This document shows, piece by piece, positions 30,472 to 37,763 of a DNA stretch of 64,000 bases; position 1 is the stretch's first letter; the number at the start of each line of letters is the position of its first letter. The translations under genes were made by a program, and so were the position numbers. The notes under the pieces are model-generated. The model searched no databases and was not told the origin of the DNA. It worked only from the letters and a program-made list of their open reading frames with translations. This DNA comes from Microcoleus sp. (lineage in GTDB: Bacteria > Cyanobacteriota > Cyanobacteriia > Cyanobacteriales > Microcoleaceae), in contig JAYFMW010000008.1 in assembly GCA_042408215.1 (NCBI GenBank), positions 192,001-256,000 on the forward strand. The letters run 5' to 3'.

Positions 30472-33400
30472 GTGACCTACGAACCCCTCCACCACAAATA
30501 TCGCCCCCAGAGCTTTGCCGAATTAGTCGGTCAAGAGGCGATCGCCCAAACCCTCACCAGCGCCATCCTGCAAGATCGGATAGCACCAGCATATCTATTT
30601 ACCGGCCCCAGAGGCACCGGTAAAACCTCTAGTGCTAGGATTTTTGCGAAATCCCTCAACTGTATTTCTACCGGCGCTCCCACCCCGACACCCTGCGGCA
30701 AATGCAACGTTTGTCAAGAAATTGCCAGAGGTTCCACACTAGATGTCATCGAAATTGACGCCGCCAGCAACACAGGAGTAGATAACATCCGAGATTTGAT
30801 TGAACGGGCCCAATTTTCCCCGGTGCAATGCCGCTATAAAGTATATGTGATCGACGAGTGTTTGACTGGTGATTCTCAGGTGCAAACTAGCGAAGGTCTA
30901 ATCCGCATAGATAATCCCAAAATCAAAGGAAAAAAAGTCCTCAGCTATAACGAAAGCTCAGAAGTTTGGGAATTTAAAAAAGTTTTAAGGTGGTTAGAAC
31001 AGGGTGAGAAACCAACACTGGTTATTAAGACGAGCCATCGAGAAATCAGATGCACCGGCAATCACTTAATCAGAACCGAACAAGGATGGATACCAGCAAA
31101 AGACGTAAAAGAAGGAGTGAAGATACTATCCCCTGTGAATGTGGGTGCGGCACCCTCATTCACAAAATTGGAACAGATGGACGCTTGCGGAGATTTGCCA
31201 GAGGACATCAATTTTACGGGAATACCTACGGACAAAAATCCTACGACTTGGCCTCTATTCTCGAACAGGCTCAAGCCATCCGACCTCTCTGTGCGTGTGG
31301 CTGTGGAGAACAACTCGAAATACCAGACTTTTTACAAAAAAAAGGCAAAGGGATTAAGAGCATTCAGTCTCATTGGCCGCGACATCCCTATAAAAAAGGA
31401 CATGGACTTTGGGATGCAAGAACGGAAAAGTTCTTGGCAAATGCCGAAGTTTTGCAACCAGAAACACTCGGACTCATTTACGGAACATTGCTTGGAGACG
31501 GTTCTATCACATACCCAAATAAATATAGCCGATTTCCAAGATTGGGCTGGACACACGGAGAAACGCAGCGGGAATGGTTGGAATACAAAGCCTCTTGCCT
31601 TTCGACACTGCGACCAAATTTACGAGTTACACCTAACCAAGGATACGGAAATATATCAGTCTGTTGCAACACAGTCTGCCATCCCCAACTTAGAGATGTC
31701 TTTGACGCTGTTAAACCCAACGGAAAAGGAAAATACGTCACAATGGATTGGCTCGATTGCATCACTCCCGAAGGACTTACTTGGTGGTACATGGATGATG
31801 GAGCGCTCAGCATTTCGCCAGAAGGAAGTCCAAATATTCAAATTCATACAGAAGGATATTCTGGGGAAGAAAATCAACTCATTGCCAAGTGGCTTACAGG
31901 CTTGGGATACCCAACAACAACCAAGTTTTACACAAGGTCTAACACAGGTAAAACCTACCACTACATACATATGGGCGCTGAAACCAGCAGAAAATGGGTC
32001 GCAGACTTTAAACAGTATTCAATCCCTTCAATGGATTACAAATTCGGAGAAGGTAGAATCTGTAAAAGTCGTTGGGGTAGAGAAAGTTTATGACATAGAA
32101 GTAGAAGACAACCATAACTTTGTCGCTAACGGTCTTCTGGTTCATAATTGCCATATGCTAAGCACCCAGGCATTCAACTCTCTCTTAAAAACCTTAGAAG
32201 AACCACCAAATCGCGTCGTCTTCGTCCTCGCAACAACGGACCCTCAAAGAGTCTTACCAACCATTATTTCCCGCTGTCAAAGATTCGATTTCCGCCGCAT
32301 CGCCCTCCACTCAATGACCGCCCACCTGCACAAAATCGCCCAATTAGAAAATATCAATATTGCCAGCGACGCAGTACAAATGGTTGCTCAACTAGCCCAA
32401 GGAGGACTGCGAGATGCCGAAAGTTTGCTCGATCAACTGAGCTTATTTCCCGGTGAAATCACAGTCGAAAAAGTTTGGGATTTAGTCGGCGCAGTCCCCG
32501 AAAACGACTTAATGGAACTGCTGCAAGCTATTGACAAAGACGACGCTACAGCCTTAGTAGACATGACCCGTCACCTGATGGATCGCGGCCGAGAACCGCT
32601 GATTGTACTTCAGAATCTCGCCAGTTTTTACCGAGATTTGTTAATAGCCAAAGCAGCACCAAAACGGTCAGACTTAGTAGCTTTAACCAGCGGAACTTGG
32701 GAGAAACTTTGCAATTTTGCCCGCCATTGGGATGCCGAGTTAATTTTGGCTGGTCAGAAACACTTGCAAACCCACGAAGTGCAAATTAAAAACACCACTC
32801 AGCCACGTTTGTGGCTGGAAGTAACGCTATTGGGATTATTACCCTCAGCCATTAGAACTCAGCAGCAACCAGCAAATAAACCAGCACAAAATACTAATCC
32901 AGCACAAATTCACCCCCCCCAACCCCCCCTTGCTAAGGGGGGGAGTCAGATATCTAATATTGCAGAATCTTCAATTCCGAATGTGCAACATCCTCCGACG
33001 ACTTCGCCGCCTATTGCTAATCGCACAGAAAACACATCTACCGCACCGATTCGAGAACCTATACCAACCGCTGAAACTAATTCTTTTTCCACTAACTCAA
33101 CCAATATTACACCGGATGAAATTGATCTAAATCGAGTGTGGGAACAGGTACTTGCTCGCGTGCGACCCCACGGTACTCAATCGCTGCTTCGCCAACATGG
33201 ACATCTAGTAAGTTTTAGCAATGATACTGCTTCTGTTAACATTAATTCGCCGCAGTTGCTCAAGATGGTTAAAGACAAAGTAGCTAATATTGAAGAGGCT
33301 TTTTTGCAAATCTTTAACCGTCGAGTCGCAGTGCAATTGGGTTTAAAGAATTCTAATCAAACTAATAGTTTAGAACCCAAGGATTTGCCAACTTCTAACG

Positions 33401-33831
33401 GAGGTGTTGGCGAAAATTCTCGGAATTTTAATCCTGTGGGTGATGCTAATCAACAGGTGCAGAATTATGGGAATTATGGGAGTTCTGAGATTCCTGATAA
33501 TTTGTTGAGGAATGGGGGAGAAGCACAAAAACAGTCGCCAGCCCCTGAAAATAATAGCGCCAAGCTGTCAAATGTTTCTGAACCAGTCCGGCCGAACAAT
33601 GGGTCGATCGCCTCTGGGAATAGCTCTAACCTTGAGGCTGTAGGGATACGCGCTGACGCACAAGATGTAGTCAATTCCGCTAGGGTGTTGGCTGAAATGT
33701 TTGACGGGGAAGTAGTCGATTTGTCAAATGAGTTAGAGATTTGGGAGTCGCAGAGTTTTAACTTGGAATCTGAACCGGATTTTCCTGAGTTATCTTCTGA
33801 GTCCGATCGGGATGATTTCGTCGATTGGTAA
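30472..33831 (+). CDS. dnaX: DNA polymerase III subunit gamma/tau, intein-containing
   Basis: LHHKYRPQSF, GPRGTGKTS, EIDAASNTGVD, YVIDE|intein|CHMLSTQAFNSLLKTLEEPP. Confidence 0.98.
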   Translation: MTYEPLHHKYRPQSFAELVGQEAIAQTLTSAILQDRIAPAYLFTGPRGTGKTSSARIFAKSLNCISTGAPTPTPCGKCNVCQEIARGSTLDVIEIDAASNTGVDNIRDLIERAQFSPVQCRYKVYVIDECLTGDSQVQTSEGLIRIDNPKIKGKKVLSYNESSEVWEFKKVLRWLEQGEKPTLVIKTSHREIRCTGNHLIRTEQGWIPAKDVKEGVKILSPVNVGAAPSFTKLEQMDACGDLPEDINFTGIPTDKNPTTWPLFSNRLKPSDLSVRVAVENNSKYQTFYKKKAKGLRAFSLIGRDIPIKKDMDFGMQERKSSWQMPKFCNQKHSDSFTEHCLETVLSHTQINIADFQDWAGHTEKRSGNGWNTKPLAFRHCDQIYELHLTKDTEIYQSVATQSAIPNLEMSLTLLNPTEKENTSQWIGSIASLPKDLLGGTWMMERSAFRQKEVQIFKFIQKDILGKKINSLPSGLQAWDTQQQPSFTQGLTQVKPTTTYIWALKPAENGSQTLNSIQSLQWITNSEKVESVKVVGVEKVYDIEVEDNHNFVANGLLVHNCHMLSTQAFNSLLKTLEEPPNRVVFVLATTDPQRVLPTIISRCQRFDFRRIALHSMTAHLHKIAQLENINIASDAVQMVAQLAQGGLRDAESLLDQLSLFPGEITVEKVWDLVGAVPENDLMELLQAIDKDDATALVDMTRHLMDRGREPLIVLQNLASFYRDLLIAKAAPKRSDLVALTSGTWEKLCNFARHWDAELILAGQKHLQTHEVQIKNTTQPRLWLEVTLLGLLPSAIRTQQQPANKPAQNTNPAQIHPPQPPLAKGGSQISNIAESSIPNVQHPPTTSPPIANRTENTSTAPIREPIPTAETNSFSTNSTNITPDEIDLNRVWEQVLARVRPHGTQSLLRQHGHLVSFSNDTASVNINSPQLLKMVKDKVANIEEAFLQIFNRRVAVQLGLKNSNQTNSLEPKDLPTSNGGVGENSRNFNPVGDANQQVQNYGNYGSSEIPDNLLRNGGEAQKQSPAPENNSAKLSNVSEPVRPNNGSIASGNSSNLEAVGIRADAQDVVNSARVLAEMFDGEVVDLSNELEIWESQSFNLESEPDFPELSSESDRDDFVDW
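30859..32148 (+). mobile_element. DnaX intein, 430 aa
   Basis: Starts CLTGDSQV, block B IRCTGNH, ends VYDIEVEDNHNFVANGLLVHN followed by extein Cys; inserted in the Walker B motif. Confidence 0.97.
31050..32093 (+). CDS. LAGLIDADG homing endonuclease with two CxCGCG motifs, encoded out of frame inside the intein
   Basis: 347-aa ORF offset +2 from dnaX; IYGTLLGDGSI and LTWWYMDDGAL helices; CECGCG and CACGCG; alternative start ATG at 31086. Confidence 0.9.
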   Translation: MHRQSLNQNRTRMDTSKRRKRRSEDTIPCECGCGTLIHKIGTDGRLRRFARGHQFYGNTYGQKSYDLASILEQAQAIRPLCACGCGEQLEIPDFLQKKGKGIKSIQSHWPRHPYKKGHGLWDARTEKFLANAEVLQPETLGLIYGTLLGDGSITYPNKYSRFPRLGWTHGETQREWLEYKASCLSTLRPNLRVTPNQGYGNISVCCNTVCHPQLRDVFDAVKPNGKGKYVTMDWLDCITPEGLTWWYMDDGALSISPEGSPNIQIHTEGYSGEENQLIAKWLTGLGYPTTTKFYTRSNTGKTYHYIHMGAETSRKWVADFKQYSIPSMDYKFGEGRICKSRWGRESL

Positions 33832-33956: not shown

Positions 33957-35312
33957 TTAAGCTGACTCCGGTTTTGGTAGGGAAGACGGAAGTACCAACA
34001 ACTCAGCAGTCGATCGCTTCTCGACCATTTCCTTAGTAATCATACACCGAGTGACATCCTTGCGCGACGGCAACTCATACATGACATCCAACATCAACTC
34101 TTCGACAATTCCCCTGAGTGCCCGCGCCCCAGTTTTGCGTCGGTATGCTTCCTGGGCGATCGCCCGAACTGCATCCATCTTAAACTCCAACTGCACATTA
34201 TCCATCTTCAGCAGCTTTTGATACTGCTTAACCAAAGCATTACGCGGTTCCGTCAAAATCGCCATCAGCGTTTCCTCATCCAGGGGGTCTAACACCGCAG
34301 CCACCGGTACCCGCCCAATAAACTCAGGAATCATCCCAAACTTCACCAAATCATCCGGTTCCAGTTGCTTGAGTACATCAGCAGCCCGCTTTTCCTTCGG
34401 CTGAGCTTCTCCCGGCTGAATAAAACCCATTGACTTTTTACCCGTTCTCTGCTCTATCACTTTTTCCAGACCGACAAAAGCCCCACCGCAGATAAACATG
34501 ATATTGCTAGTGTCAATTTGGATGCAGTCTTGATAGGGATGCTTGCGGCCGCCTTGGGGAGGTACATTGGCGATCGTCCCTTCCAGCATCTTCAACAGCG
34601 CCTGCTGCACCCCTTCACCCGACACATCCCGCGTAATCGAAGGATTTTCGCTCTTACGAGCAATTTTGTCAATTTCATCAATATAAATTATCCCGCGCTG
34701 CGCCTCTTCCACATCCATATCTGCCACTTGTAGCAGGCGCAGCAAAATATTTTCCACATCTTCCCCAACGTAGCCCGCTTCCGTCAGCGTCGTCGCGTCA
34801 GCCACCGCAAATGGCACATCCAGCATATCTGCCAAAGTCTGAGCCAGCAGAGTTTTGCCACAACCAGTCGGCCCGATTAACAGAATATTGGACTTTTGCA
34901 GTTCTACTTCTTCCGGTGGGTGCTTGCCGCTATTTTTGCTATGAATAAAACTCAGGCGCTTGTAGTGGTTGTAAACCGCCACCGACAACACCTTTTTCGC
35001 CTCATCTTGGCCGATGACATTTTCGTCGAGATAATTTTTAATTTCCCTCGGCTTCGGAATTTGGCTCATCGAGATACTTTTGCCGGAATTAGCACGGCGC
35101 TTTTGGGTCGTTTCCTGCTTCGGAGGCTTCGGAGGCGTCGCCGCCGCCGCCGGCACTGCACTAGAGTCAAACAACTCCTCATCTAAAATTTCATTGCACA
35201 AGTCAACACATTCATCACAGATATAAACCCCAGGCCCTGCGATCAACTTGCGTACCTGCTCTTGAGACTTGCCACAAAAGGAACATTTTAGATTGGAGTC
35301 GTATTTAGACAT
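33957..35312 (-). CDS. clpX: ATP-dependent Clp protease ATPase ClpX
   Basis: [39 protein letters not shown]. Confidence 0.98.
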
Positions 35313-35357
35313 AACAGCCGATACTTTTTTGCTAACGTTTACTAACAAACACATAAG

Positions 35358-36929
35358 TTAAATCGCTAAAAAGCTTTTCAACCAAGGCGTATCAACCAAT
35401 GCCCGAAGGAAAATCCCACGAGCACCATTTAGATCCCGGTTCATCTGATTTCCATCAGAATCTTTAATCGTTCTACTACCACCAATCTTTTTGACTTCTC
35501 CAGTCCATGAAACAGTCTTTGAAGTGTAAGCTTCGTTGATAGAAGTTAAAGCAACTTTGCCCTGCTCCCAAGCTTTCCACTCTAGATGTTTTTTAAACTG
35601 ATAATGACTCAGAGTCAGCATTTGACGAACAGTCTTAGAACGAATCTTACGACGTGACTTGCTCACCATCTGAGAAGACTTAAACGATGGAAGTAATATC
35701 ACATCAAAATTATCAACTAAAAATTTAGCAGTCTTGTGATGCAACTCTTTGACAAGATGTTGAATCTTAGACTTTAATCTGTCCGCTGCTTTCTTGAGTC
35801 TTTTGCGTTGTGGGCTAGAAGTTTTACTCATCCTTGACATCAACTTATCTAACCTGAAACACAACTTTTGAATCAAAAGATTAGCATCATTCCCAATCCA
35901 TCCATAGAAAGATTCAGAAAAGAAGGTCATGAACGTTCTAACACCGGGGTCTAAGGCAACCACGCGACCTTGGTTGTCGGTTCGTTGTGGTTGCACTTTT
36001 TCAGATGTAACAATGTAATACTCGCCATAGGTAAGCGTTAACCGTCCATCGCTGAAGTCTTCGGGTAATCCCTCTTTCAGCTTTGATTGACCCAGTTTTG
36101 TCTGATAAATTCCTTTCGACCCAATTGCCGACTTCGGAATATAAAGAGATTGCTTTGTATTTTTTCGACTACGAAATTTGCAACTACAAATTTTACCAGT
36201 TTTCTTGAAGTCTGCTTTAGCTTTTTTGACAGCCTCGCAAGCATCCTTAATGGCAATCGATTTGATTTGAAACGGTACTGGTTTTGCCCAGTCAGGCAAT
36301 CCATTAAGTATGTCCGTTTTGATTGACATCCAACTGGCTTTAGTGCCTGGTTGCTGCAAGTATTTGATTGTCACGTTGTACACGTAACGACTCACGCCAA
36401 ACCACTGCTTCAGTATTGCTTTTTGTTCAGACTTTAGGAATAGTCGGATCTTCTTTGATTTTCTGACTGTAACTCCGCCGGGAGTGCATTCGGCAACGGT
36501 CGCCCTGAACGATGGCAAGAAGATCCGCTGTGAGTTCGGACTCTGGGCCGTGAACAGGATTTGCGAGAACCAGGATCGAGCCACCGTTTTGTTTTGCCAT
36601 GAACTCGAAAAGTTCAAATCCGAATCTGCTTTAGATGTCTCGACAGGCAATAACAACCGTGAGCTTATCCCCGCGCACAAATCTGACCAGTAGGGCTTGC
36701 AGTCCTTTTCTCTTGAAGTTGAGTCCCGATCCAATATCTTGGATGATTTCTGAGTCGGGGTATCGCTCTGGCATAAATTCAACTTGTCTTTCGAGGTCGT
36801 CTTTTTGCTTGGCACTACTGACTCGACAATAGCAGATGACTGAGCAGATGCTTCCATCTTTTTGGTAGGAGTCAACGTCGTAGAGGCGTTGTCCTGCTCC
36901 ATTTTTGATTGATTTGATCTGCCCTTCAT
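35358..36929 (-). CDS. tnpB: RNA-guided nuclease TnpB (IS607-associated, rearranged RuvC); true start uncertain
   Basis: KKIRLFL..EQK..LKQWFGVSRYVYN, VVALDPGVRTF, ILLPSF, INEAYTSKT, NRDLNGARGI. Confidence 0.92.
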   Translation of the reverse strand: MKGRSNQSKMEQDNASTTLTPTKKMEASAQSSAIVESVVPSKKTTSKDKLNLCQSDTPTQKSSKILDRDSTSREKDCKPYWSDLCAGISSRLLLPVETSKADSDLNFSSSWQNKTVARSWFSQILFTAQSPNSQRIFLPSFRATVAECTPGGVTVRKSKKIRLFLKSEQKAILKQWFGVSRYVYNVTIKYLQQPGTKASWMSIKTDILNGLPDWAKPVPFQIKSIAIKDACEAVKKAKADFKKTGKICSCKFRSRKNTKQSLYIPKSAIGSKGIYQTKLGQSKLKEGLPEDFSDGRLTLTYGEYYIVTSEKVQPQRTDNQGRVVALDPGVRTFMTFFSESFYGWIGNDANLLIQKLCFRLDKLMSRMSKTSSPQRKRLKKAADRLKSKIQHLVKELHHKTAKFLVDNFDVILLPSFKSSQMVSKSRRKIRSKTVRQMLTLSHYQFKKHLEWKAWEQGKVALTSINEAYTSKTVSWTGEVKKIGGSRTIKDSDGNQMNRDLNGARGIFLRALVDTPWLKSFLAI

Positions 36930-37002
36930 CTGCGTACTTCCTTAAAGTGTTTGGATGCAATCCTAGAAATTCGACTGCTTTTCTAATCGGTATGTATGCT
37001 AT
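36427..37002 (-). pseudogene. tnpA: IS607 TnpA serine recombinase with a premature stop
   Basis: ATA in the expected start position (IAYIPIRKAVEFLGLHPNTLRKYAD), YCRVSSAKQKDDL, DIGSGLNFKRKG; TAA at 36633-36631 in CRDI*SRFGFELF; the frame then continues ELTADLLAI to TGA at 36429-36427. Confidence 0.88.
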
Positions 37003-37073
37003 GAATCAAAGATATTGCATTTGTTTGCAAATATCAATGACTGTTAGGAAATTAACTACTGTGGATCAACCTC

Positions 37074-37763
37074 TTATTTCAGTGCAGTGACATTCTCTCC
37101 CGCCGCCGGAAGATTTTCCTTAGCGATGACTTTATCGACCAATCCATAATCTTTGGCTTCAGCCGCTGACATGAAAAAGTCGCGTTCAGTATCAGCCTCT
37201 AATTTATCGATCGGTTGACCTGTGTGGTGCGCTAACAGTTCATTCAACTTACGTTTATGATAAAGGATTTCTTTGGCTTGAATCTCAATATCAACTGCTT
37301 GACCTTGAGCGCCTCCCAGTGGCTGGTGAATCATAATTCTCGAACTGGGAAGAGACATCCGCTTGCCGGCGGCTCCTGCTGTCAGCAGAAATGCGCCCAT
37401 ACTCGCAGCCAAACCGTAACAAATCGTTACCATATCGGGGCGGATTTGCTGCATCGTGTCATAAATTGCCATGCCGGCTGTCACCGAGCCGCCGGGGGAA
37501 TTGATGTACATTTGGATGTCTTTTTCCGGGTCTTCGGCATCTAGATACAGTAGCTGAGCCACTATCGAGTCTGCCACTTCGTCAGTTACGGGGGTTCCCA
37601 GAAACACAATTCGCTCCCGCAGCAAGCGCGAGTAAATGTCAAAGGCTCGCTCGCCCATCCCCGACTGTTCTAGTACCATCGGCACTACGTTGCTGGGGTG
37701 GTCGCTGACCTCAAAATTGTTATAGCTTGTGATTAGGTAGTTGGAAGATTGAGATACAACCAT
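37074..37763 (-). CDS. clpP: ATP-dependent Clp protease proteolytic subunit
   Basis: [41 protein letters not shown]. Confidence 0.98.

Follow-up and report, generated by a model that had tools for sequence, protein, structure and literature searches.

A zinc-finger-free, Fanzor-related TnpB of a non-autonomous IS607 element between clpP and clpX of Microcoleus sp., a likely RNA-guided homing nuclease

The closest described counterparts of the TnpB considered here are the pro-Fanzors, which were collected with a regular expression demanding both CxxC pairs of the zinc finger (PMC10711439). The TnpB in our window, i.e. the whole 64,000-nucleotide stretch of a Microcoleus sp. contig (JAYFMW010000008.1) that was analysed, resembles the pro-Fanzors described there in the DPG at RuvC-I, the IS607 TnpA partner, the cyanobacterial relatives, an alternative Glu that precedes the finger position by six residues and a pseudoknotted right-end RNA, which is computational here. 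Unlike them, it lacks CxxC..CxxC. Motif fingerprints and the tree place it in the pro-Fanzor clade, while the zinc-finger part of the published pattern does not match; because CxxC..CxxC is missing, it is a variant and not a pattern-defined pro-Fanzor. Since the pattern required both CxxC pairs, it had no way of retrieving a zinc-free branch. Neither "overlap" nor "N-terminal" appears as a word in the main text of the study.

Among the Fanzors proper, the mimiviral Fanzor2 ApmFz2 (9b0l; PMC11832414) is the best PDB match by sequence. Both proteins are alike in size (523 vs 520 aa), triad spacing and a G-rich TAM, predicted in our case, and the N-terminal domain aligns as well. They share only ~20% identity, and ApmFz2 binds zinc, whereas the present TnpB has no finger. 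The N-terminal extension of ApmFz2 is called unique to Fanzor2 in its description (PMC11832414); here it is bacterial and overprinted on tnpA. Moreover, Fanzor2 proteins are encoded by eukaryotes or eukaryotic viruses, whereas this TnpB is chromosomal (clpP-clpX) and its named homologs are cyanobacterial.

With regard to RNA and target, the reference systems are ISXfa1 (PMC10711439) and CboIStron (bioRxiv 2023.11.20.567912), for which pseudoknot and boundary rules have been shown. In CboIStron, transposase target and TAM match, and retention by the IS607 TnpB has been shown. The present element shares with both the GG core, the UCGG scaffold end, the guide after GG and, as proposed here, a transposase target equal to the TAM and retention via cutting of empty sites. 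It differs in that its TnpB falls in a different, derived RuvC clade and in a predicted TAM of RRGG instead of TGGG. Replacement of the canonical RuvC-II Glu by an alternative Glu ~50 residues further on is also described for the TnpB2 and RIIr clades (PMC10530073, PMC10691335), and zinc-finger loss has been noted in some TnpB branches (PMC10691335). Yet TvTnpB from this group is IS605-linked with a T-rich TAM, unlike this IS607 TnpB, and the rows combining D-hydrophobic-G with the alternative Glu lie outside the DPG clade of our 79-row tree. Gene-less omegaRNA elements, finally, were described for IS200/IS605 (PMC10055086).

The element and its insertion site

The element extends from 37069 to 35318 and comprises 1,752 bp including one GG, with ends taken from the alignment of copies (Table 1). 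It belongs to the IS607 family, having a serine-recombinase tnpA (Pfam Resolvase and MerR matches) upstream of tnpB and a GG core; comparison with the empty site gives this core without target duplication, i.e. an IS607-type insertion. The element is non-autonomous and tnpA is dead in this copy, with ATA as first codon at 37002 and a stop at codon 124; two sister copies (G000:C5, C29) encode an intact 191-aa TnpA. Three more full-length copies are found in the same genome (88%, 73% and 73% DNA identity). Since several elements occupy different sites within this one genome, the zinc-free form belongs to mobile elements.

Table 1. Coordinates of the element, its predicted parts and its flanks in the window.
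Feature	Position	Strand	Basis
Host clpX, downstream flank	33957..35312	-	named from sequence motifs
Predicted guide	35298..35317	-	length inferred; boundary rule as described in PMC10711439
Predicted omegaRNA scaffold core	35318..35423	-	stem-loops and pseudoknot; overlaps last ~22 tnpB codons and right end
Cysteine-free segment VSWTG...NRD in place of CxxC..CxxC	35433..35513	-	alignment; model pLDDT 92-95
tnpB, 523 aa, DPG/alternative-Glu type without zinc finger	35358..36929	-	ORF and motif reading
TnpB catalytic triad	D327 (35951), E466 (35534), D499 (35435)	-	
TnpB N-terminal extension, aa 1-156	36462..36929	-	+1 frame of tnpA; frame, profile and model evidence
tnpA serine-recombinase pseudogene	36427..37002	-	ATA first codon, internal TAA 36633-36631
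Left end of the IS607 element	37003..37069	-	copies diverge outside; empty joint 35317 to 37070
GAGG, 5' flank and predicted TAM (family RRGG)	37070..37073	-	flank alignment
Host clpP, upstream flank	37074..37763	-	named from sequence motifs

No group I intron was detected: Rfam gave no intron match on the element at E up to 5, and the non-coding stretch ahead of tnpA, at 67 bases, is too short to accommodate one. The Rfam scan of element and mini-elements (see below) returned nothing credible, and a promoter scan of the element gave 1 site vs 3.1 expected. The element is covered by assembled contigs from RNA runs, which as contigs carry no strand, end or transcription information.

The order at the locus is clpP stop, GAGG, element, CTGTT and clpX ATG. 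In the empty allele, GAGG constitutes the clpX ribosome-binding site directly after the clpP stop, and the insertion at its GG separates it from the clpX ATG. An uninterrupted clpP-clpX junction occurs in 20 of 24 same-genus genomes and in none of 16 others, with no match for the reversed control pattern. Both filled junctions are present at full identity in public runs, as is the precise empty joint (two shared letters) in two runs of one study; hence, an assembly error is ruled out as the source of the insertion. Runs X1 and X2 contain the filled allele alongside the precise empty one, possibly from different strains. The same right junction recurs in one of 78 further congeners (G200, another species) as a ~390-bp relic (L266:2716-3103) without left end or pseudoknot loop, whose final 40 bases are unchanged. 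Since the G200 element has decayed to a relic there, persistence at the clpP-clpX site does not need TnpB. A side observation concerns these same 40 bases: an in-frame ATG three bases past the tnpB stop (35354-35312 (-)) could add 14 residues to ClpX and thereby replace the displaced ribosome-binding site.

The TnpB protein, its N-terminus and the zinc-finger position

The tnpB frame is open from the ATG at 36929 and ends at 35358. A preliminary description had assigned only 35358..36460 (367 aa) to the protein and called it compact. Position 36460, however, corresponds to aa 157, where there is no ATG, and beyond residue 25 the next in-frame Met is residue 201; at 523 aa the protein is about Fanzor2-sized, and a construct begun at 36460 would miss a conserved N-terminal domain. 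The motifs named in that description are all present in the translation: the RuvC-I DPG at aa 327 (nt 35951), ILLPSF from aa 411 with Pro414, NEAYTSK from aa 465 with Glu466, VSWT at aa 473 and RDLNGA at aa 498 with Asp499. It was likewise right about a cysteine-free VSWT at the zinc-finger position, the final Cys being residue 357, and about the stop codon (35360-35358), with 40 nt between it and the element end (35318).

In Pfam, the TnpB HTH and TNB domains scored above cut-off and OrfB_IS605 slightly below. The sole PDB match of the single sequence is ApmFz2 (9b0l, E 3e-24), and the alignment agrees with the Fanzor-type rearrangement of the active site proposed earlier. DPG falls on DPG, P414 on a Gly at the canonical-Glu position and the triad on D324/E467/D501, where E467 is among the catalytic residues assigned in ApmFz2 (PMC11832414). 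VSWT falls on the first CxxC of the finger; E466 is followed by six residues and then by V473, aligned with the first Cys of 9b0l. D327/E466/D499 is invariant in all 144 aligned relatives, down to 30% identity; in the 121 closest proteins, D327 and E466 are kept throughout and D499 in 120.

The front third of TnpB likely forms the extra domain seen in viral Fanzor2. Its PYW helix and SWF strand match the N-terminal domain of Fanzor2. Relative to tnpA, the TnpB core reads in the +1 frame in 43 of 44 anchored elements; over the ~160 overlapping codons of these 43, the TnpB frame is free of stops, whereas the TnpA frame has 13, spread over 11 elements. An ATG lies among the first ten codons in all 43 in-frame elements, at alternative positions, and for each of 4 tnpA segments none of 5000 synonymous reshuffles kept the frame open. 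Collecting the loci through their similarity to the query gives open frames a slight advantage, and related elements do not count as independent. An AlphaFold2 model from a deeper alignment (pLDDT 88.6) orders two stretches of the extension, with residues 1-73 and two linker stretches disordered or unmodelled and the thumb-equivalent stretch (model 73-86) at low confidence. A first model from a shallow alignment (pLDDT 60.9, residues 1-156 unfolded) was excluded from the conclusions. In comparison with the PDB, only for 9b0l does the alignment reach back to model residue 14, equivalent to residue 53 of 9b0l, where the N-terminal domain of the latter starts; it covers 417 residues, while the other top TnpB/Cas12f matches begin at 87-93 of the model; the Z-scores themselves tie (9b0l 26.3 vs ISDra2 TnpB 26.4). 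The family profile matches 9b0l at 3e-71, the next natural protein at 3e-26, and enters ApmFz2 at residue 77, inside the RuvC-R subdomain. In ApmFz2, RuvC-R contacts the RNA pseudoknot and is described as not seen in other TnpB structures (PMC11832414). Profile match and model range thus indicate a Fanzor2-type RuvC-R part in the N-terminus of this TnpB.

Among viral loci, five of the eight checked show the same +1 overlap on a tnpA-like frame (three on giant-virus MAG contigs), and the first 150 residues of the query match one viral locus at 31% over 109 aa, to which tnpA homology contributes in part. Conceivably, the extension is an untranslated by-product of the codon structure of tnpA and the working protein a ~370-aa core. 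Sequence likeness in the overlap may indeed be carried by tnpA homology, and the disordered or unmodelled parts would suit this reading. It is nonetheless highly improbable in view of a core start that has no ATG, the 0 vs 13 stops and the alternatively placed start codons in 43/43 elements, the profile match within RuvC-R and the W-F motif upstream of the WED start, which persists in viral proteins with tnpA on the other strand. A translated extension would mean that the likely start is corrected for a large group of Fanzor-related nucleases, that WED-start constructs would miss a domain with which Fanzor2 completes RuvC and contacts the RNA pseudoknot, and that overprinting offers a concrete origin for the Fanzor2-type N-terminal domain. 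Literature searches yielded no paper on a tnpA/tnpB overprint or on a zinc-free pro-Fanzor; the supplements of PMC10691335 and PMC10711439 may bear on either. As a separate observation, a candidate sliding-clamp-like motif, QLxLPLF (consensus as in PMC3971601), lies inside the overprinted region, in the N-terminal 90 aa of 70 of 121 homologs (P0002-P0121), and is absent from this copy.

The cysteine-free segment keeps its length. DPG and S-W-T are present, and CxxC is absent from the last 95 residues, in all 121 closest proteins. Clustering at 50% gave 150 representatives, 119 of which are classifiable for the zinc finger: 70 have none, 10 a partial one and 39 four cysteines, and all 70 finger-less ones retain Glu and Asp. 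Loss as private decay of this copy is ruled out by these 121/121 homologs and 70/119 representatives. In a 79-row RuvC tree (LG+G4, rows sampled from 175 candidates) computed without the finger columns, a 61-row clade with support 100/99 unites the query with 10 Fanzor2-like viral proteins and with DPG proteins that bear the finger; canonical and D-hydrophobic-G TnpB rows fall outside it. The Fanzor2-like rows are viral-contig proteins with a profile match to 9b0l of 3e-87 and not curated Fanzors, and several have skewed composition. The query sits in a 36-row subclade (99/96) in which the finger erodes. All 10 Fanzor2-like rows keep the finger, for which they were selected, and branch outside the zinc-free branch. 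Since the latter is nested among zinc-finger-bearing proteins, with the Fanzor2-like rows outside, the tree indicates a derived loss that does not lie on the line leading to Fanzor2, and a TnpB that is a cousin of Fanzors without being the form closest to them. The preliminary description was thus borne out in its grouping with Fanzor2-like proteins and not with canonical TnpBs; of its phrase "closest to eukaryotic Fanzors", the shared DPG/alternative-Glu clade stands, the closeness does not. A single origin of the loss received weak support (69/88) with the finger columns and is unsupported without them (4 changes).

Finger loss might also cripple cutting branch-wide and leave an RNA-guided protein that binds or nicks DNA, protecting or regulating the element but making no double-strand breaks. 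The function of the TnpB zinc finger has been called unclear (PMC10691335), and no cleavage-tested zinc-free member occurs among the papers found. Still, this appears unlikely considering that D/E/D is invariant across the 144 sequences, finger present or absent, with every graded state (C4, partial, none) in that alignment retaining it, and that the segment keeps its length and is modelled with confidence (Table 1). The series of four, two to three and no cysteines is a natural one for probing the role of the finger, and a G-rich TAM read by a zinc-free nuclease would add to the range of targetable sites. Nine further IS607-type loci in the same genome (L098-L106) encode DPG-clade TnpBs with a full zinc finger, several frameshifted and most with the same overprinted N-terminus, and could serve as natural controls.

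Predicted omegaRNA, target motif and element retention

The predicted omegaRNA overlaps the tnpB 3' end, as had been proposed, with a covarying computed structure spanning the last ~22 codons. It is an RNAalifold consensus of 53 right ends plus two helices added by eye, in which 97.0% of 1700 cells are paired (slid controls 43-53%) and 11 of 33 pairs show two-sided changes vs 5.4 in shuffles. The predicted pseudoknot joins 35393-35389 to 35324-35320, i.e. GATAC in Val-Asp-Thr codons to GTATC before the terminal GG. Its cells are 99.6% paired in the 53 ends, and one pair has 6 two-sided changes; six sequences, probably from one lineage, change both sides, the gene-side change being silent. The symmetry of the right end may partly reflect TnpA binding sites, and the own right end alone folds weakly (z -1.9).

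The flank beyond the right end reads CTGTTATGTCTAAATACG, which are the letters named as guide in the preliminary description, and its predicted start past the terminal GG corresponds to two other IS607 TnpBs (PMC10711439, bioRxiv 2023.11.20.567912). This predicted guide covers the clpX start codon (35312-35310), so that making the RNA would cut into the host protease message. For the TAM, 57 flank rows were reduced by 11 (3 duplicates, 2 tandem, 6 low score) to 46 distinct insertion flanks: GAGG 15, AAGG 14, GGGG 7, AGGG 7 and other 3, with purines at -4 in 45 and at -3 in 44; the method itself imposes the GG, and one left end (L063) is probably miscalled. The predicted family TAM is therefore about RRGG, taken as TAM because transposase target and TAM match in CboIStron (bioRxiv 2023.11.20.567912). 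A TAM ending in GAGG, as proposed earlier, agrees with the own flank but is too narrow for the family (15/46). The element itself ends in TCGG, a sequence that would be spared. In its own genome, no RRGG-plus-12-mer matches this copy's guide with at most one mismatch; short own-genome matches exist for a few other guides but do not extend.

Taken together, we favour, at a probability of roughly 0.7, a zinc-free Fanzor-related TnpB of a non-autonomous IS607 element that is likely an RNA-guided homing nuclease retaining the element. Translation would start inside tnpA, and the overprinted N-terminus would fold onto RuvC as in Fanzor2. A transcript through the right end would fold into an omegaRNA with a pseudoknot and a UCGG end, after which the clpX leader and start codon would serve as guide. 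The enzyme may then read RRGG beside its target, ignore TCGG at its own end and cut empty clpP-clpX alleles, the break being repaired from a filled chromosome copy, by which the element would be kept in place. Excision would require TnpA from intact sister elements.

Activity of the family is probable; for this drifting copy, the odds are about even. Compared with 12 close copies, its private codons comprise 16 non-silent and 5 silent ones (others 1-14 non-silent), a near neutral ratio with the highest non-silent count of the 13, though nine of the 16 are common to one 96% relative. Of the earlier attribute "intact", frame and triad stand; given these codon changes, this copy itself may or may not be active. 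Somewhat short of even odds, the family could be active and this copy a stranded relic, with a dead tnpA, a drifting, non-cutting TnpB and a merely tolerated insertion. The two tnpA lesions fit such a relic, as do the 16:5 ratio including E417K (a Glu present in 119/121), S341F and A300T, the deleted relic at the same site in another species and the coexisting filled and empty alleles in X1 and X2, if not from different strains. On the other hand, 523 codons have stayed open while the overlapping tnpA has a stop, every catalytic and SWT residue is retained, the pseudoknot pairs are intact, and departures at highly conserved core columns are typical (6/220 vs a median of 5).

Gene-less mini-elements and neighbouring observations

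Ten gene-less elements of a 327-bp type (7 full-length) occur in this genome and share both ends and the last ~100 bases with the element. One example (L014:173-499; G000:C5:363572-363898) has the same ends, a promoter-like motif and the omegaRNA core, and no gene. In having both ends and the RNA core without a gene they are like the PATE-like elements (PMC10055086), from which they differ by IS607-type ends, the promoter-like motif and an extra ~140-nt structured module. This module has no Rfam match and is absent from inside the full element; the mini-elements are candidate guide cassettes acting in trans. RRGG flanks and the promoter-like motif were seen by eye in 19/19 checked. The interior is found in 27 of 36 congeners and, when the phylum is scanned with a covariance model, in 7 of 151 genomes, among them the present one and one outside the family. 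A related mini-element in a different family (L254:1501-1619 (-), G197) has the same RNA module and right-end repeat. The interior folds (z -5.0, 97.8% of cells paired), and the two-sided changes of the module mostly separate two lineages, 69 of 500 shuffles reaching the pair count. Run X1 contained a 189-base contig of the mini-element 3' part at depth 276 vs 21 in the flank, an excess not repeated in X2 or X4, depth being a poor measure.

Tentatively, with somewhat less than even confidence, a broader reading may be offered. The Fanzor2 N-terminal domain would have been born by overprinting on IS607 tnpA, already present and selected in bacterial pro-Fanzors and still overlapping in the +1 frame in giant-virus elements; the cyanobacterial branch would later have lost zinc entirely, as a zinc-independent nuclease reading RRGG and supplied in trans by self-promoted 327-bp guide cassettes with an undescribed RNA module, one lineage of them fixed at a single chromosomal site in many congeners.

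A diverged mini-element lies at one conserved near-tRNA chromosomal site in many congeners (L123-L135, about 1394-1728), with a near-constant 3' flank (a fixed guide), and is not at that site in G000; this could reflect neutral inheritance or domestication. Elsewhere, a full element has a mini-element directly at its left end (L026:1037-1360, L039:1044-1365); the predicted guide of that mini-element would then be this left end and could be directed against sister copies. The window further holds what we take to be a dnaX-like gene with an intein-like insert (30472-33831 (+)). Inside it, in another frame, lies a 347-aa ORF (31050-32093 (+)) whose second half is presumably homing-endonuclease-like.
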